In this document: in pieces, positions 22,960 through 56,034 of the stretch | Layout of the letters: the number at the start of each line of letters is the position of its first letter | How positions within the stretch are numbered: position 1 is the stretch's first letter | IMG/VR virus record: IMGVR_UViG_3300042691_053984 | Coordinates: 1 to 64,000 of that record | Reading direction: 5' to 3' (one strand) | Source of the DNA: a virus | Length of the DNA stretch: 64,000 nt | Program-made: the position numbers and the translations under genes | The notes under the pieces: generated by a model | Database searches by the model: none | What the model saw: the letters and a program-made list of their open reading frames with translations, nothing else | What the model was told of the DNA's origin: nothing

Positions 22960-25900
22960 TTAACCTTCGTACTCAACATCAAAAGTAAAGTCTGTTCTCT
23001 CTGCCTGGGCCTTGTAATAATATTCGATGTCGTTATCCAGGCATTCGACACTGAATTCTGAGATAGAGGTTGTAACCACGTAAATGACACTAGGAGACCC
23101 GATGGGTGTGAGGTGGACAGTGATGGAAGATTCGTCCACGAGGTTTTTCCAATATTCCGGTAGCTTGACAGTTCTTTCCTTCGTTCGACCCCTCACGTAC
23201 ACACCGTTCTCTGGTCCCTCAAGCGTCCCGTGACGCAGTTTCCAACCTGGTTTGTTTGGGTGTTCAATGACGAAGCTCTTCACGGTGGCGGCAAACTCAC
23301 CGTTCACTTCAAGTGCGTAATTTGGTGTGGAGGTATTGATACCTACCTTTGAATTGACGACAGACAATGTGCTGACGTTGTTACCATTCTTGACGTCAAG
23401 CGTGCCGCTGACGACCATATTTCCGTCGAAACGAGCGTTTGCGGCGGTTCCTTTTGTGCCCACATAGAAGAAAGTGTCGGGTGCTAGCGAGGCCGAACCA
23501 ACCATGACGGAACCGGAGTTGACGAGGAATATGTTACTTCTTTCTCCCAAACTACTGAACGGGCCTAAAGTGTTGGTTGGGGTCGGGTACCAGCCGTCCC
23601 CGTTGCCAACAATGAACAGGGAATCAGTATTCAGTCTGTTATATTTACCCACCACGGTCTGGTGGTTTCCCTGCGCAAAGGTGTACAAACCTCCTGCGTG
23701 CGAGTATTCTCCGAAAGCAAGGCATCCTTGGCCTTCTGCGTGAGAGTAATTGCCATAAGCGCGAGTGTACTGGCCTTCTGCGTGAGAAAAATTACCCGAT
23801 GCAGTCGTAATGCTGCCCTCTGTGTGGGAACCTTGACCAGACGCGAGTGTGTACGTGCCCTCTGCGTGGGCGGCGAAGGCGGATGCTGTGGTGAACCAAC
23901 CTTCGGCGTGAGAAGAACCACCTTGGGCTAACGTGTCAATGCCTTCGGCATGATCGCCGCTCGCTGCGGCACGAGTACGTACGCCTTCCGCGTGAGTGTA
24001 TGGTGCAGACGCCGTGGTGAGCCAACCTTCGGCGTGAGAGTAGTTGCCTTGCGCAAGAGTCAACCGGCCTTCGGCATGTGACCATTGACCTGAAGCAAGT
24101 GAACCTGAGCCCTCTGCGTGTGCGCCAAGGCCTGAGGCAACAGTGTTACCTCCTTCAGAGTGTGAGAATTGACCTGAAGCAAGTGAACCTGAGCCTTCCG
24201 CGTGGGCGGCCTGACCTTGTGCAACGTTTCTGAAACCTCTTGAGTGAGAGAAATCACCGGACGCTGTGGTGAGGTAGCCTTCCGAGTGAGCAGCCTGTCC
24301 TTGTGCCGTTGTCAACTCACCTTCTGCGTGAGAGAAATCACCGGACGCTACGGTGCGATAACCCTCAGTGTGAGCAGTCTGCCCTGATGCCACCGTCTCC
24401 TCTCCTTCTGCGTGCGCAAAAGAATTTGAAGCCGTCGTGAAGTAACCTTCTGCGTGAGAGTAGATGCCTTCCGCAAGCGTAAATTCTCCCTCTGCATGTG
24501 AGCCCAGGCCGGTTGCACGTGTCGAGTCTCCTTCGGCGTGGGCGTACCAGTCCGACGCCGTGGTGAAGTAACCTTCTGCGTGAGAGTAGTTGCCCTGCGC
24601 AAGCGTTTGCCAACCCTCCGCATGCGCGCTGATGCCCACTGCTACCGTGAGCAGACCTTCCGCGTGTGTGGCGCGTCCTTCTGCACGTGTCTTCTCTCCT
24701 TCTGCGTGCGCAGCGAGGGCACTGGCTGTTGTGTACAACCCCTCGGTGTGAGAGTAGGTGCCGTCAGCCCAAGTCCTATATCCTTCTGAGTGTGCACCAA
24801 AGCCGTCTGCAATGGTCTCGTGACCCTCTGCATGTGCAGAGGTATTTGAAGCCGTAGAAAGAAAACCCTCGGCGTGTGAATAGGGGCCTTGCGCGTGCGT
24901 CTGTTGACCCTCGGCGTGAGAATATACTCCCTCAGCTAAAGTGTTGTCTCCGATGGATAGCGACCCAGTCAAGAAAACAGTGTCGCTTGCAAATGTGAAA
25001 TTCGCGGTCGCGGCAAATACGCCGCCATTGTTAAATTGTATACCTGTGTCGGGGGCGCCGGGCGGCGTGCCCACAGCAGACGTGATAGTGATCGCCCCAT
25101 TAGATTCCGAGGTGATCGAGATTCCCGCTCCCGCAATCAGGTACGATGTACCGTCAATAAGCTGGGTGAGTGAGCCGCTTAGGCCCACCTCAAACCGGCC
25201 AGTTCCCGACACGTATGTATCACCCGCAAATGTGGCCGTCGTGGCCGAGCCCTGCGTTCCCACATAAAAGAAAGTATCTGTACCTATCGATGAAGATCCT
25301 ACCATCACCGAATCAGGATTTACGAGTAAGATGTCACGACGGTTGGCGTTCGAATCCCCGGTGCCATTTCCCACGACGAAGAGAGAATCCTCATTGTCAC
25401 GCTTGTTGTACTTTCCGACGACAGTCTGGCCTGAACCAGAGGCGATGGTAAACACGCCGCCTGCATGAGAGTAGGTGCCTACTGCCTCTGAACCCCAACC
25501 CTCGGCATGCGAAGCGCCTCCAGAGGCCGTTGCGTAAAATCCTTCGGCGTGAGCGTAGTTCCCAAGGGCCCGAGTCCTATATCCCTCAGAGTGAGATCCG
25601 CCTCCCTCTGCGTGGGTGTACTCACCCTCAGCGTGAGAAGAATCACCCGATCCTGTGGTAAAAAGGCCCTCAGAGTGAGATTGCTCTCCTGAAGCCAGTG
25701 TGTACCAGCCCTCTGCGTGGGCACGAATCTCTGATGCCACAGTTAGCGTGCCCTCGGCGTGCGTCGCCATGGCAGACGCACGTGTAGACCATCCCTCTGC
25801 GTGCGAAAAGATGCCAGACGCAGTCGTTAAATATCCCTCAGAGTGAGCAGAGTCCCCGGAAGCAAGTGTATTATCTCCCTCTGCGTGCGCGCCCCCTCCT

Positions 25901-26718
25901 GTCGTTCTTGTTGCAAAGCCTTCTGCGTGGGATAGGTTTCCTTCTGCCCTTGTGCTTGCACCCTCTGCGTGAGAATAATCACCTTGAGCCGTTGTTTCTT
26001 GACCTTCTGCGTGAGAAGCCTGCCCAAGAGCAAACGCATTCCAGCCTTCTGCGTGAGCGTAGATGGCGGAAGCTGTCGTTAGATAACCCTCAGTGTGAGA
26101 GGCCTCCCCTGACGCAAGGGTCTTGAATCCCTCGGCGTGGGCGTAATCTCCACGGGTCGTCGTGTTGTAACCCTCGGCATGCGAAAATCCCCCCTGGCCT
26201 ATCGTGCCTGTGCCCGCCCGAGAAAGCTCACCCTCTGCGTGTGCATAATAATTTGAAGCCGTGGTGCGATAACCCTCAGCGTGAGAAGCTGCGCCTGCTG
26301 CAAGCGTAAATTCTCCCTCTGCATGTGAGTACTGGCCTGCTGCGGTAGAGACATTTCCCTGTGCCAGTGTTCCCGTCAGGTACAGGTTGCCGCTCACGAA
26401 AGTGAACGCAGAAGAGCCGAGGAAGTAACCGCCACCATTATACTGCACGCTATTGACGGGAAGACTCAAGTCTCCTGATGGGCCTGACGCGAGGGGGATG
26501 GAAGATCCCCAGGGACCTTCATCAGAGGGCTTGGGGCCGTACAGGTTCCAGGCCGACGTATCTATATAGAGGTCGTCTACCAATCCCAACGTGTCTGCAG
26601 GAGGTCCCACACCGTTCAATATCGTATTACACACTGCACATGCGTCGCCGGATTCCCTTGGGACCTCTCTGCGATACGAATACGTCTTTTTGTAGCGGGT
26701 CGCGTCTCTTCTAACCAT
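22960..26718 (-). CDS. tail fibre/adhesin, 1252 aa
   Basis: Two long runs of 14-aa HAEG repeats; C-terminal KSFVIEHP...TLEGPE domain shared with the 2147 aa protein. Confidence 0.85.
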   Translation of the reverse strand: MVRRDATRYKKTYSYRREVPRESGDACAVCNTILNGVGPPADTLGLVDDLYIDTSAWNLYGPKPSDEGPWGSSIPLASGPSGDLSLPVNSVQYNGGGYFLGSSAFTFVSGNLYLTGTLAQGNVSTAAGQYSHAEGEFTLAAGAASHAEGYRTTASNYYAHAEGELSRAGTGTIGQGGFSHAEGYNTTTRGDYAHAEGFKTLASGEASHTEGYLTTASAIYAHAEGWNAFALGQASHAEGQETTAQGDYSHAEGASTRAEGNLSHAEGFATRTTGGGAHAEGDNTLASGDSAHSEGYLTTASGIFSHAEGWSTRASAMATHAEGTLTVASEIRAHAEGWYTLASGEQSHSEGLFTTGSGDSSHAEGEYTHAEGGGSHSEGYRTRALGNYAHAEGFYATASGGASHAEGWGSEAVGTYSHAGGVFTIASGSGQTVVGKYNKRDNEDSLFVVGNGTGDSNANRRDILLVNPDSVMVGSSSIGTDTFFYVGTQGSATTATFAGDTYVSGTGRFEVGLSGSLTQLIDGTSYLIAGAGISITSESNGAITITSAVGTPPGAPDTGIQFNNGGVFAATANFTFASDTVFLTGSLSIGDNTLAEGVYSHAEGQQTHAQGPYSHAEGFLSTASNTSAHAEGHETIADGFGAHSEGYRTWADGTYSHTEGLYTTASALAAHAEGEKTRAEGRATHAEGLLTVAVGISAHAEGWQTLAQGNYSHAEGYFTTASDWYAHAEGDSTRATGLGSHAEGEFTLAEGIYSHAEGYFTTASNSFAHAEGEETVASGQTAHTEGYRTVASGDFSHAEGELTTAQGQAAHSEGYLTTASGDFSHSRGFRNVAQGQAAHAEGSGSLASGQFSHSEGGNTVASGLGAHAEGSGSLASGQWSHAEGRLTLAQGNYSHAEGWLTTASAPYTHAEGVRTRAAASGDHAEGIDTLAQGGSSHAEGWFTTASAFAAHAEGTYTLASGQGSHTEGSITTASGNFSHAEGQYTRAYGNYSHAEGQGCLAFGEYSHAGGLYTFAQGNHQTVVGKYNRLNTDSLFIVGNGDGWYPTPTNTLGPFSSLGERSNIFLVNSGSVMVGSASLAPDTFFYVGTKGTAANARFDGNMVVSGTLDVKNGNNVSTLSVVNSKVGINTSTPNYALEVNGEFAATVKSFVIEHPNKPGWKLRHGTLEGPENGVYVRGRTKERTVKLPEYWKNLVDESSITVHLTPIGSPSVIYVVTTSISEFSVECLDNDIEYYYKAQAERTDFTFDVEYEG

Positions 26719-27827: not shown

Positions 27828-28664
27828 GTGCAACAATTTATTTGCAAAATTTGTGAGAAAGAGTTTGAGACCGGGCAGTCTTTGGGGTCTCACAAACGAT
27901 CGCACTCAAGAAAATTAATTAATTGTGAAATTTGTCACCAAAAATTTGGTGTCAATTCACTTGAAAAGCACAAAATAATTTGCCTTGAAAAAGAAAGATT
28001 GAGTTACAAGCATTGTGAAAAATGCGGAAAAGATTTCAAATCTTACTCAAGTCGTTTTTGTAGTAGAAGTTGTGCAAATGGTCATTCAGTAAATGAACAT
28101 CAAAAAATGAAAGTTTCAAGTTCGCTTATCTTTCATCACTCAGAATCAGAAAGCTTTCTCTTAAAAAGAAAAGATAAAAATTGTAAATATTGCGGAATTA
28201 TAACAAAATCGATCAATAATCGCCCAACTAAAGAGTATTGCACACCCCCTTGTTTAAAAGCAAAAGAAAAGAAATCACAAGCTATTTCTTTAAAAGTAAA
28301 AGGTAAGACTGGTGGCTATAGAAAACAGGGTGGAAGAGGTAAAGGATGTTTTTATAAAGAAATTTGGCTGGATTCGTCTTGGGAATTGGCGTTGGCTAAG
28401 CGATTAGATGATTTAGGAATTAGTTGGGAGCGAGACACAGGTAAACATAGATTGCCATACTTTGATGAAAGTGGAAATAAAAAAAATTATTTTCCTGATT
28501 TTTACATACCAAGCCTTAATCTTTATATTGAAGTAAAAGGATTTTGGACTCCAGGCGTAAAGTACAAAATGCTTGCAGTAGAGCAAAATAATAAACATCT
28601 CAATATTTTGATACTAGATTCTCTTTCTCAAATTGAAACATTAAAATTGAATATTGATGCGTAG
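27828..28664 (+). CDS. zinc-finger + PD-(D/E)xK endonuclease (homing-endonuclease-like) inside the tRNA cluster
   Basis: C2H2 finger CKIC..HKRSH, further CxxC clusters, then DSSWELALAKRLD...YFPDFYI...YIEVKG; much more AT-rich than its flanks. Confidence 0.8.
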   Translation: MQQFICKICEKEFETGQSLGSHKRSHSRKLINCEICHQKFGVNSLEKHKIICLEKERLSYKHCEKCGKDFKSYSSRFCSRSCANGHSVNEHQKMKVSSSLIFHHSESESFLLKRKDKNCKYCGIITKSINNRPTKEYCTPPCLKAKEKKSQAISLKVKGKTGGYRKQGGRGKGCFYKEIWLDSSWELALAKRLDDLGISWERDTGKHRLPYFDESGNKKNYFPDFYIPSLNLYIEVKGFWTPGVKYKMLAVEQNNKHLNILILDSLSQIETLKLNIDA

Positions 28665-53856: not shown

Positions 53857-53886
53857 AAAAAAAAGTTCAATCTAGTTAGATTGAAC
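53857..53886 (-). terminator. intrinsic terminator after the fractured dehydrogenase gene
   Basis: Minus strand GTTCAATCT-AACT-AGATTGAAC followed by a T-tract. Confidence 0.7.
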
Positions 53887-53908
53887 CTTTAAGTTTAGTT
53901 GAAGTTAT

Positions 53909-54196
53909 TCAGCTTCTTTTTGAGACAGCACGCCCTAATTGTCTCTCCCAATCTTTGTCTTTTCTGACCTCCTTGTTCTTTTCCCAAGCGGCCTGCAGAA
54001 CGACTGGATTTACGTCTAAATTCTTAGAAAGCTTAATTAAAGCGTTGATATCTTTTGGAAAACAATTGTGGACAACAATGTTATTGCACACCCAAAACAA
54101 ATCATCATTTTTCTCATCAAGGGATGAAAGTTCTAAATTGTGAACTGTTCCGGTGTACGACAATCTTTCAATTTTTTCGATTTTTGCAGTTTTCAT
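53909..54196 (-). CDS. split-intein C-fragment (44 aa) fused to C-extein of UDP-glucose dehydrogenase-family enzyme
   Basis: MKTAKIEKIER...VHNLEL...NIVVHN|CFPKD: His-Asn terminus, Cys+1; CFPKD is the dehydrogenase catalytic motif. Confidence 0.92.
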   Translation of the reverse strand: MKTAKIEKIERLSYTGTVHNLELSSLDEKNDDLFWVCNNIVVHNCFPKDINALIKLSKNLDVNPVVLQAAWEKNKEVRKDKDWERQLGRAVSKRS

Positions 54197-55225
54197 AAAA
54201 TGTTTTTTTCCTTGAGTTCATCATCAAAAACAAGTCTTATCTTCAACTCAGGATTAGACTTTTTTATATTTTCCCATTTTTTTTCATTTAAACTAAAGTG
54301 ATATTTATTTTTGATATCAATATATTCATCGGAATCAGGAAGGTAAAAATCTGGATAGTATGATTTCTCTGAACCGTTTTCATCCTTATACTTGATTCTT
54401 CCTTTGTGGGCTACAAAATTTACTCCTTCATTTTGTAGCCATCTTGCGTATGCAAGTTCCCATGTTCCCTGTAGCTTACAAATGGAGCCGTCAGATTTTT
54501 CAAAGTCAAACCATTTACACTTTCCTACTTTGACGCCATCAAACTTTCCTTCAGCCCAAGCCTTTTTTACAAGTTCACGTGTCATGTTTTTAAAATTTTC
54601 ATCTGACTTGAACCTTTCAGATCTTTTCTTCCCTGCTTTGACTGCAATCTCGGGATTTTTCATCGGATTTTTTTCACCTGAAATATATCCTTTTTCAAGG
54701 TGAGTCTTTGAAACCTTTTTTGCCCACTCAGGATGAGTTTCTTTTGTTCGATAAGTTTTTCCAAACGATGGATTTTTTTCTCCGGTTTGGAATAGGCTCA
54801 CACATTTTGTAGAACAAAATTTTCTTTTTCTTTCTTTGTAAGAAACTGTGAACAAAACTTGGCAGTTTTTACAACTTATGTCAATTTTTTTCATACCCAT
54901 AGGTATTGGCGGTCATTGCTTTTCATATGGTAAAAAGTTCATCTGTTTCTAAAATTTCAGATGCTTGAATGAGCAAAATTTGATTGTTTCTCTTGATTGG
55001 TAGGATATGACACGGTGTACAGGTTACTGACGTTTCAGTACCGTTGACAATGACTGTGAATTTGATCACTTCACCATGATAAGCACGAGCATGAATTTCT
55101 TCAACTCGCTTAGTGTTCGTTTCATTTAAAGTGTGATTTGAACTAATGACTGAATCATATGGTTTGATATCTTGAACTAAGACGCTGCCTTTTTCGGTTA
55201 GCACGGCGGTGTCACCGACAATACA
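54065..55225 (-). mobile_element. fractured-gene cassette: IntN - mini-ORF - endonuclease - IntC
   Basis: Removing 55225..54065 restores GYGGH-CFPKD in frame. Confidence 0.88.
54193..54894 (-). CDS. free-standing endonuclease (Zn-binding + NUMOD3-like + PD-(D/E)xK) between intein halves
   Basis: CKNC..FCSTKC, GEKNPSFGK, GEKNPMKN, LQGTWELAYARWL...YYPDFYL...YIDIK. Confidence 0.82.
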   Translation of the reverse strand: MKKIDISCKNCQVLFTVSYKERKRKFCSTKCVSLFQTGEKNPSFGKTYRTKETHPEWAKKVSKTHLEKGYISGEKNPMKNPEIAVKAGKKRSERFKSDENFKNMTRELVKKAWAEGKFDGVKVGKCKWFDFEKSDGSICKLQGTWELAYARWLQNEGVNFVAHKGRIKYKDENGSEKSYYPDFYLPDSDEYIDIKNKYHFSLNEKKWENIKKSNPELKIRLVFDDELKEKNIL

Positions 55226-55975
55226 ATGCCCGCCGTACCCACGATCCCCATCGGGACCGGGAACTGACCAATGAGAATTTCCCAATCTTACATCATACTT
55301 TGCGTATTCAACGACTTTATCGTAGTCAATGTTTAGACCGTCCTTATCCAAAGCCTCACAAATTTGCGACATCTCGTTCGCAAATGAGACCTTTGTGGCT
55401 AAGAAACAATTAGTCACGTACTTCACCATTTCCGCAGTAGTTGAAGACGTTTTGATGAGCGGAACCTTGGGAAATGCTGTTTGAAACACTTGCTTTACCC
55501 TGTTGATCCAGGGCCGAGGTCCACCGAGGATTATTCGATTCTGGTTTCTCATGTCATCGAGGGCGTTTGCCTCTGTGAGGAACTCAGGATTGAAGACAAC
55601 CTTGAGACCGGTTCCTTCAAACTTTTTGTTCCAACTCTCTGTGGAACCGGGTGGTACTGTTGACTTTACTACCGCGATTCGTTCTCCGGGGATATCTGCC
55701 AGCTCCTGAAGCACACCACCCACGATGGACAGGTCGGCCTCTCCGTCCTCATACATGGGAGTGGGTAAACACACAAAGTAAACCCCTGAGAAATTATCTT
55801 GTGCCTCACAAGAGGCCACAAGATCACCCGTAGATGCTGCATTTCCAAGGCTGCCTTCGGCACACTTTCCCGCCTTGTCATATGTGTGAACCTTGAAACC
55901 TCTTTCCGAGAAAACAGTGGTGATTGAACCACCTACGAAACCTTGACCGATCACAGCGATAGAATTTTGAGACAT
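54923..55975 (-). CDS. UDP-glucose/GDP-mannose dehydrogenase family N-extein fused to split-intein N-fragment (100 aa)
   Basis: IAVIGQGFVGG, CLPTP, KSTVPPG, FNPEFL, AEMVKYVTNCFLATKVSFANE, GYGGH|CIVGDT (block A), TPCH (block B), then stop. Confidence 0.92.
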   Translation of the reverse strand: MSQNSIAVIGQGFVGGSITTVFSERGFKVHTYDKAGKCAEGSLGNAASTGDLVASCEAQDNFSGVYFVCLPTPMYEDGEADLSIVGGVLQELADIPGERIAVVKSTVPPGSTESWNKKFEGTGLKVVFNPEFLTEANALDDMRNQNRIILGGPRPWINRVKQVFQTAFPKVPLIKTSSTTAEMVKYVTNCFLATKVSFANEMSQICEALDKDGLNIDYDKVVEYAKYDVRLGNSHWSVPGPDGDRGYGGHCIVGDTAVLTEKGSVLVQDIKPYDSVISSNHTLNETNTKRVEEIHARAYHGEVIKFTVIVNGTETSVTCTPCHILPIKRNNQILLIQASEILETDELFTI

Positions 55976-56034
55976 CACGACCACTCCTGATTTGTTAATC
56001 AACGTAATTTAAGACATTTAAATGTTCATGTGAA

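Follow-up and report, generated by a model that had tools for sequence, protein, structure and literature searches.

Within a 64,000-nucleotide (nt) stretch of viral DNA (positions 1 to 64,000 of the 132,858-base IMG/VR virus record IMGVR_UViG_3300042691_053984, CheckV completeness ~40%; hereafter, the window), a gene of the nucleotide-sugar dehydrogenase family is interrupted by what is very probably a split intein, with an endonuclease-like gene lying between the intein halves. The layout is on the minus strand and consists of three consecutive open reading frames (ORFs) within 53909-56002. ORF1 encodes the N-terminal part of the host protein (N-extein) followed by the N-terminal intein half (IntN), ORF2 the putative endonuclease, and ORF3 the C-terminal intein half (IntC) followed by the C-terminal part of the host protein (C-extein). 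ORF1 (frame 56002/55975..54923) likely starts at ATG 55975, with AGGAG 9 nt upstream, and reads ...GDRGYGGH, then CIVGDTAVLT...TCTPCH...ETDELFTI, and then a TGA stop at 54925-54923. ORF2 (54900..54193; 235 amino acids, aa) begins 22 nt past this stop, with a start and a stop codon of its own; ORF1 and ORF3 lie in one common frame, and ORF2 in another. ORF3 (54196..53909; 95 aa) reads MKTAKIEKIERL...NNIVVHN, then CFPKDINAL..., and ends 51 residues beyond the +1 Cys; its ATG overlaps the ORF2 stop (ATGA). An original prediction, made from the letters of the window alone, had described this three-ORF anatomy, with IntN at 55225-54926 and IntC at 54196-54065. The ORF frames and translations agree with it, and every coordinate it gave is correct.

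The uninterrupted form of the gene occurs in four related viral contigs (L003-L006), one of which, L003, is syntenic with the window. These intact genes encode 308-372 aa, read GYGGHCFPKD or GARGHCFPKD where the window gene is interrupted, and have the same short C-terminus. The N-extein is 60-74% identical to uninterrupted viral homologues, and the N-extein and C-extein together (250 + 51 aa) are colinear with the 308-372-aa intact proteins. A wider scan yielded 80 further intact alleles, and the G(G/R)H-CFPKD region (here and below, the hyphen marks the insertion site) is gapless in intact alleles. Because the intein-less homologues are colinear across the junction, we read the interruption as an insertion, which by alignment falls exactly before the catalytic-motif Cys of GGH-CFPKD. 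Base composition also counts in favor of an insertion: the GC content of the N-extein is 0.44-0.51, whereas that of the insert drops to 0.28-0.38, a foreign composition. The original prediction held that splicing would restore GGH-CFPKD, and this same junction is read exactly in the intein-less homologues.

To identify the insert, we rely on profile comparisons and on conserved residues. A profile of IntN matched the solved inteins Mja KlbA (E 2e-10), PI-PkoII (E 7e-8), NrdJ-1 (E 2.6e-4), and gp41-1 (E 4.3e-4). With IntN as a single sequence, a PDB search gave only a weak bacterial intein-like match (E 0.053) and no solved intein below E 0.05, and neither Pfam nor PHROGs recognized IntN or IntC as inteins at E 0.01, with one weak exception. 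A match of IntN to the C-terminal end of a split "DNA helicase" PHROG (E 0.0076) was weak and was not used. As an exhaustive HMMER query, IntN alone found 33 relatives among 1.84 billion representatives, which superseded the picture from a word-indexed protein search limited to IntN that had returned one protein only. Most of the 33 are N-fragments of dehydrogenases in which the last ~100 residues align and the split endpoint is the same, while three (P0047, P0050, and P0058) are contiguous mini-inteins at the same position, with IntN-like and IntC-like parts joined by a short linker.

The residues expected of a splicing element are conserved in both halves. Cys1 lies directly after GGH, and Cys1 as well as the Thr and His of the block B motif TxxH are invariant in two alignments (13 and 9 sequences). 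The IntC-C-extein proteins form 24 clusters that are 48-100% identical and start at the same position; all are 94-103 aa long, except one of 73 aa. Across 23 sequences, the invariant residues are G16, V18, N20, E22, L23, D31, D32, L33, W35, H43, and N44 of IntC, together with C45, F46, K48, and D49 of the C-extein. The catalytic-motif residues of the exteins (K185, N189, C, K, and D) are invariant as well. Based on these motifs, the element appears to be a class-1 mini-intein.

The host protein is less easily named than the intein. The N-extein matches PF03721 (6.5e-24) and PF00984 (8.7e-19), and the central domain is complete only when ORF1 and ORF3 are joined. We did not find the UDP-binding C-domain (PF03720) in the window gene, in the intact homologues, or anywhere in the 133-kb record (a ~40% complete phage); in control searches, PF03720 gave a signal in 14/14 control genomes, above the cut-off in 11/14. 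Against the NCBIfam equivalogs for UDP-glucose dehydrogenase (UGDH), the intact homologue L003 scored 91-149 bits, below the cut-offs of 670-757, and TIGR03026 (nucleotide sugar dehydrogenase), a subfamily model of NCBIfam, was the only one that it passed (205 vs the cut-off of 189.8). Given the absence of PF03720 and the sub-cut-off equivalog scores, we refer to the host as a putative nucleotide-sugar dehydrogenase-family protein, not a proven UGDH (EC 1.1.1.22). The host had been predicted to belong to the UDP-glucose dehydrogenase family; on PF03721, PF00984, and the GGxCxxKD Cys the family assignment stands, but a UGDH proper does not follow from these matches. The accompanying claim that the +1 Cys is the enzyme's catalytic nucleophile is supported, as this residue aligns with the Cys of GGxCFPKD (GGSCFPKD) in solved UDP-glucose dehydrogenases, the established catalytic nucleophile of those enzymes. 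The whole viral dehydrogenase clade (window 53909-54064; L003:3998-4924) ends ~50 residues after the catalytic Cys, without a UDP-binding domain. Since the intact viral homologues are equally short, the short C-end appears to be native to this clade.

The split itself recurs well beyond the window. A 350-aa protein (P0001) with 98% identity is found on an independent ENA contig, derived from another sample. It starts at the Met of ATG 55975 and has the same ...ELFTI end; with six substitutions, it appears to come from a different strain. The three-gene layout is present in ~16 IMG/VR contigs and ~25 metagenome loci (~40 in all) and is common in viral metagenomes. Across these loci, identity drops to ~30% in IntN and ~45% in IntC. 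Between the halves, the endonuclease invariably has an ORF to itself, and in all loci except L039 its frame differs from that of one half or both. Both intein halves are nonetheless intact when the endonuclease is degraded (L027, L032) or absent (L030). The ratio of nonsynonymous to synonymous substitution rates was considered for the window and L007 but dropped, since at 57-64% protein identity their synonymous sites are saturated.

These comparisons bear on the simplest alternative, in which the intein would be of the ordinary contiguous kind, with its endonuclease domain inside, and the apparent split would stem from errors in assembly or sequencing. The site is indeed occupied by contiguous inteins in two viral loci (L042, L043) and in cellular genomes; however, those carry a LAGLIDADG endonuclease or none, never an ORF2-type endonuclease in frame. 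In the window, ORF2 is out of frame with both halves, so that two compensating frameshifts as well as a stop would be needed, and the ATGA overlap and Met start of IntC recur in independent assemblies, as does the end residue in P0001 from another sample and strain. An artefact of this kind is hardly credible. Because it would need the stop and two frameshifts to be repeated across independent assemblies, the recurrence supports a split that is real in the DNA and not an assembly error.

To evaluate whether the halves would bind each other, a two-chain complex was predicted from separate alignments of the two halves, with 5 extein residues left on IntN and 8 on IntC. The interface score (ipSAE) was 0.86, compared to 0.00 for the best of three controls; in calibration, this level is reached by 58/80 solved complexes and 2/110 mismatched pairs. 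The runs have at least 92% of contacts in common, with a partner predicted local distance difference test score (pLDDT) of at least 73. The predicted interface includes both splice junctions, and the acidic IntN tail pairs with the head and last strand of IntC. The model thus supports IntN-IntC binding, and its score may reflect likeness to solved split-intein complexes. The last 12 residues of IntN are acidic, and the first 15 residues of IntC carry a net charge of +2, whereas IntC as a whole is slightly acidic (-2). The local pattern extends across the family, in which the IntC head has a net charge of +1 to +6 in 24/24 sequences. The acidic IntN tail and basic IntC head of the original prediction are therefore found locally and across the family, but the description does not extend to the whole of IntC. 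The "fast" splicing and the orthogonality proposed for this pair are guesses.

Tight association of IntN with IntC would also be expected if the intein halves were only affinity domains holding the enzyme fragments together non-covalently, and PMC3045599 describes such a precedent, the split NrdA of Aeromonas phage Aeh1, in which fragments assemble via mobile-element-derived domains. Binding alone, however, would not need the strict conservation of Cys1, TxxH, the terminal HN, and Cys+1, and without excision the catalytic Cys would lie directly beside ~144 intein residues. We consider non-covalent assembly most unlikely.

Altogether, the locus is very probably a genuine fractured gene, in which a dehydrogenase gene is split by a trans-splicing intein and the endonuclease is a mobility module. 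This was also the reading of the original prediction, and it is supported by the separate ORFs, the out-of-frame endonuclease, and the GGH-CFPKD of the intein-less homologues. In the proposed mechanism, the ORF1 product (N-extein-IntN) and the ORF3 product (IntC-C-extein) would associate through their intein halves to form a HINT fold. Trans-splicing would then proceed by an N-S acyl shift at Cys1, trans-thioesterification to Cys+1, cyclization of Asn44, and an S-N shift, and would yield a ~301-aa enzyme (250 + 51 aa) in which the former +1 residue serves as the active-site Cys. As the mobility module, the endonuclease would most likely cut intein-less alleles at or near the GGH-CFPKD codons, and the interrupted allele would be immune because its target site is split. 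Several points weigh against this reading. We infer splicing, ligation rate, and endonuclease activity alike; ORF2 has no obvious Shine-Dalgarno sequence; and the mature protein would be without the UDP-binding domain of canonical UGDHs, while the notion that activity depends on splicing presumes that there is an activity.

If splicing were no longer needed, the locus could be a dead relic, in which an endonuclease gene destroyed an intein-containing gene, the halves are no longer expressed or spliced, and the phage does without the enzyme. Yet both halves are open and full-length in the ~40 loci despite divergence to 30-50% identity, no splicing residue and no catalytic-motif residue of the exteins varies, and the intein halves are intact where the endonuclease decayed (L027, L030). 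Intact halves and invariant residues are the pattern expected under selection for splicing, and we rate a dead relic as very unlikely, even though the host gene is auxiliary and its product has no UDP-binding domain, the cluster varies among many related phages, and endonuclease remnants show decay continuing in the locus family.

The features of the fractured gene are collected in Table 1. The consensus scan that found the terminator-like hairpin downstream of ORF3 detected no terminator-like site in or between ORF2 and ORF3; its other matches were three weaker 6-7-bp stems, all within the part of ORF1 that codes for the N-extein, and a mirror match on the other strand. ORF1, ORF2, and ORF3 are probably one transcription unit.

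Table 1. Coordinates of the fractured dehydrogenase gene and its putative endonuclease in the window
Feature	Position	Strand	Evidence
N-extein, 250 aa, NAD-binding domain and most of the central domain, ends ...GYGGH	55226..55975	-	PF03721, PF00984
IntN, 100 aa, putative class-1 intein N-half: Cys1 (CIVGDT), block B TPCH, acidic tail ETDELFTI	54926..55225	-	
TGA stop of ORF1, at the intein's canonical endonuclease-insertion point	54923..54925	-	Homologous loci stop alike
Free-standing homing-endonuclease-like gene, 235 aa	54193..54900	-	Pfam, PDB, model fold
IntC, 44 aa: basic head MKTAKIEKIERL, block F (GTVHNLEL...DDLFWV), block G (VVHN)	54065..54196	-	
C-extein, 51 aa and stop, from the +1 Cys of CFPKD to ...GRAVSKRS	53909..54064	-	
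Terminator-like hairpin, 13-bp stem then T run, directly 3' of ORF3	53861..53890	-	Consensus scan

The product of the gene between the intein halves carries a Cys4 zinc-ribbon-like motif at its N-terminus, GxxNP repeats in the helical region that follows, and at its C-terminus a PD-(D/E)XK nuclease domain with catalytic residues E148, D184, and D195-x-K197. Among the N-terminal cysteines, C10 and C13 are invariant in all sets of relatives and C29 and C33 in the closer set; E148, H165, P183-D184, K197, and K208 are likewise invariant. In Pfam, ORF2 matches DUF7487 at 28.1 bits (cut-off 27), covering only profile positions 164-211 of 220, and Phage_endo_I (PF05367) at 26.9 bits, under the cut-off of 29.1. 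T7 endonuclease I is the nearest match of ORF2 at the sequence level (PDB E 6e-5), and the alignments to 3cae and 1m0d bring PDF and (D/E)xK into register; ORF2 also matches a PHROG annotated as Holliday junction resolvase. The AlphaFold model (pLDDT 82) places residues 126-235 in a restriction-endonuclease-like fold, for which VIA-align gave structural likeness to TnsA (Z 9.3; root-mean-square deviation [rmsd] 2.5, 106 aligned), Bax1 (Z 7.4), I-Bth0305I (Z 7.2; rmsd 3.2, 80 aligned), and Vsr (Z 6.3). A Foldseek search with the model gave no match below E 0.001. ORF2 contains no EDxHD motif, and no sequence match to 3R3P or Vsr was found at E up to 1. Since EDxHD is absent and the catalytic lysine is kept, ORF2 is of an endonuclease type distinct from the GIY-YIG and Vsr-like genes of published fractured genes.

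A further comparison is with I-Bth0305I and the EDxHD Vsr-like endonucleases (Taylor et al. 2011, PMC3239194; PDB 3R3P). Like ORF2, these combine an N-terminal DNA-binding region with a C-terminal restriction-endonuclease-like fold, and both types occur between split-intein halves. In contrast, ORF2 has a classical E...PD...(D/E)xK site including the lysine, matching E20, D55, E65, and K67 of T7 endonuclease I, and its best structural match is TnsA. Three further ORFs of the record have an ORF2-type PD-(D/E)XK domain: one in the window at 27828-28664 (+), and two at record positions 103553-103882 and 122482-122790. The window ORF (278 aa) matches the ORF2 family profile with E 1e-16 and has C2H2-type zinc fingers, not Cys4, at its N-terminus. 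The phage seems to carry several free-standing endonuclease genes of the ORF2 type.

Where relatives of ORF2 are found helps to distinguish a homing endonuclease from a T7-endonuclease-I-like resolvase, a phage nuclease of recombination or repair that came to lie in the intein by accident. All ORF2 relatives of at least 37% identity with readable flanks are either inside this intein or 10-150 nt downstream of the intact host gene, which counts against a resolvase. The N-terminal zinc ribbon and helical extension are typical of modular site-specific endonucleases, and the gene is patchily distributed among close relatives and co-occurs with junction-codon variants (see below). We therefore regard the resolvase as quite unlikely, even with T7 endonuclease I and a Holliday junction resolvase PHROG as the best sequence matches and three paralogous nuclease-domain ORFs elsewhere in the record.

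Across the locus family, the insertion site is found in several states. The split intein is accompanied by a full endonuclease in the window, L007, L008, L028, L029, L033-L041, and others, by a 72-aa endonuclease remnant in L027, and by a partial endonuclease in L032; in L030, no endonuclease is detectable between the halves. In addition, a second dehydrogenase subfamily is interrupted by the same intein and endonuclease (GMGDGG(A/G)-C...HN-CHPRD(NIAL)) in metagenome loci L075, L081, L085, and L087, and its C-fragment, at 128-203 aa, has a longer C-terminal part. Two viral loci have contiguous 357-aa LAGLIDADG inteins (L042:1626-2696 and L043:1629-2702) at the same GG(L/K)-C...THN-CFPKD site, with SEDH as block B; these belong to a different intein lineage.

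The same site is also occupied in cells. The pattern [VT]HN-CFPKD occurs 228 times in cellular genomes, among them Halorubrum, Haloarcula, Halobacterium, Halosimplex, and many uncultured bacteria and archaea, and 77 of the 80 loci that were fetched have contiguous inteins, in full-length enzymes with the C-terminal domain. Among the 80, only a locus in a metagenome-assembled genome of Solirubrobacterales (L251:2601-2843) has as few as 30 in-frame residues before HN-CFPKD; this bacterial copy could be split or frameshifted. In two further cellular loci, the upstream frames are only 158 and 166 residues long.

Halorubrum, Haloarcula, Halobacterium, and Halosimplex are among the carriers of the "udp" intein allele (Soucy et al. 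2014, PMC4071816), which resides in UDP-glucose 6-dehydrogenase of Methanococcales, Halobacteria, and a few bacteria (InBase Mja UDP GD). The window element shares with it the host family and the insertion site, blocks F and G are recognizably alike, and identity over IntC and the extein is 30-45%; the identity of the site is read from the HN-CFPKD junctions in cellular genomes, not from the M. jannaschii copy. The original prediction had mentioned a contiguous intein in an archaeal UDP-glucose dehydrogenase, and such inteins are indeed present, at the same site. With contiguous "udp" inteins at this site in archaea and bacteria, the window element is the split viral branch of the known allele. 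It differs in being split, in having another endonuclease as a separate gene, and in its viral, C-domain-less host.

To assess what the endonuclease may recognize, we compared junctions among intact alleles. In IMG/VR, 13 of the 80 intact alleles have the endonuclease downstream, and none of these 13 has the standard junction (G/R)GH-CFPKD; they read GGS-CFCKD, GGS-CFIKD, GGS-CFVKD, GGH-CFVKD, GGS-CFPKD, GLS-CFPKD, SLS-CFPKD, or AGS-CFIKD. The 67 alleles without a downstream endonuclease comprise 54 standard and 13 variant junctions (Fisher p 3.3e-8, uncorrected for relatedness). The substitutions are at the codons of His(-1) and/or Pro(+3) or their neighbors and affect first and second codon positions, for which conservation is otherwise 90% or higher, and metagenome loci give the same picture of endonuclease and junction variants. 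After correction for relatedness, using a tree built without the junction residues and pairs on supported branches, the association loses significance and is carried by few independent contrasts: of 7 independent pairs, 3-5 agree with it and none runs counter to it (sign-test median p 0.125). The distribution is suggestive of, but does not establish, an endonuclease that targets the GGH-CFPKD junction DNA. Fractured alleles retain standard GGH and CFPKD flanks, as expected if interruption protects the carriers.

Two near-sister alleles differ in both respects: L127 has GGH-CFPKD and no endonuclease, whereas L149/L150 have GGS-CFVKD with the endonuclease just downstream. A second endonuclease-like ORF (L004:3216-4004, 262 aa) is only 25% identical and has GxxNxFFGK repeats and PDF...E-V-K. 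ORFs of this 262-aa type lie directly upstream of the intact dehydrogenase, with a 4-nt overlap with its start, and occur also in L148, L154, L168, L189, and L194 (~740-1600). The standard junction is retained in 4/5 distinct alleles with this upstream ORF (L154 being the same contig as L004), and the upstream endonuclease-like ORF may thus target another site.

Based on these patterns, we tentatively propose, with slightly more doubt than conviction, that the locus family records collaborative homing for an intein, involving a DUF7487-type endonuclease, substituted or interrupted target sites, and a split intein that was selected and spread. In this scenario, the DUF7487-type PD-(D/E)XK endonuclease would recognize the DNA coding for the dehydrogenase active site (GGH-CFPKD). 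Carriers of the free-standing endonuclease would escape self-cleavage through changed His(-1) or Pro(+3) codons, and intein carriers through interruption of the target. The endonuclease gene would have entered a mini-intein of the old "udp" allele, creating a split intein that has since been kept by selection, and this split intein would have reached two or more dehydrogenase subfamilies, also in cases of later endonuclease decay.

Collaborative homing was reportedly described by Bonocora and Shub in 2009 for free-standing endonucleases with group I introns, and the cyanophage psbA endonuclease F-CphI of Zeng and coworkers (Zeng et al., in 2009) is said to be a further case. As in the group I intron systems, the endonuclease gene here adjoins its target, a self-splicing element at the presumed cut site would protect the carrier, and there is a composite form with the endonuclease inside the splicing element. 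The systems differ in that the splicing element here is an intein, not an intron, and in that the cut site and immunity are deduced from the distribution of junction variants. The term collaborative homing is used in PMC10448857, and the homing reading of the locus fits step II of the model in PMC2677866.

The latter study (Dassa, London, Stoddard, Schueler-Furman, and Pietrokovski 2009, PMC2677866) described fractured gp41, NrdJ, NrdA, IMPDH, DnaE, ligase, and terminase loci from ocean metagenomes, with eight kinds of enzyme active in DNA synthesis or repair as the only hosts and with GIY-YIG or Vsr-like endonucleases. Our locus matches these in the order of its ORFs (N-extein-IntN, endonuclease, IntC-C-extein) at one locus and in one orientation, with overlapping coding frames, in its environmental and viral source, in its split at the canonical endonuclease-insertion point, and in its insertion at an active-site residue. 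In contrast, the host in the window is a sugar-metabolism enzyme, the putative endonuclease is neither GIY-YIG nor Vsr-like, and the ORF2 family is also free-standing beside intact copies of the same host gene. The gp41-1 (PDB 6QAZ) and NrdJ-1 (PDB 8UBS) inteins are, like the window element, class-1 split mini-inteins from phages, with halves of similar size, and the predicted IntN-IntC complex of the window likewise has a large interface; the similarity is at the profile level only (E 4.3e-4 and 2.6e-4, respectively), and the +1 residue in the window is Cys, not Ser.

A literature search found no description of a split intein in this host, with most subscription journals outside its scope, such that a prior description is possible; a published 34-intein library mentions no such host. 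Thus, the layout is already known, and what appears to be new is the host enzyme and the endonuclease type within it, for which we found no published description. If our reading is correct, fractured genes would extend beyond DNA-metabolism enzymes to a glycan-biosynthesis enzyme, with the intein at the active-site nucleophile residue, and ORF2 would be a third endonuclease type for the fractured-gene layout. A single gene family would include every stage (empty, endonuclease with variant site, contiguous, LAGLIDADG, and split with or without endonuclease), making models of split-intein origin testable. The dozens of diverged natural Cys1/Cys+1 IntN/IntC pairs are also candidate trans-splicing tools, with the Cys+1 requirement as a limitation.

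The genes neighboring the dehydrogenase encode a NAD-dependent epimerase/dehydratase, a GT2 and two GT4 glycosyltransferases, a methyltransferase, and a PD-(D/E)XK nuclease, and a baseplate wedge protein is encoded further along the record. Based on the glycan genes and the baseplate wedge protein, the region is a glycan-biosynthesis cluster of a large uncultured tailed phage. When the phage collection was searched at the DNA level with the surrounding 4 kb, no match was obtained. Elsewhere in the window, a highly repetitive 1252-aa ORF (22960-26718, minus strand) has 12 separate stretches that match phrog_25468 (E 9.5e-187) and adjoins ORFs of 2054 aa and 2147 aa.

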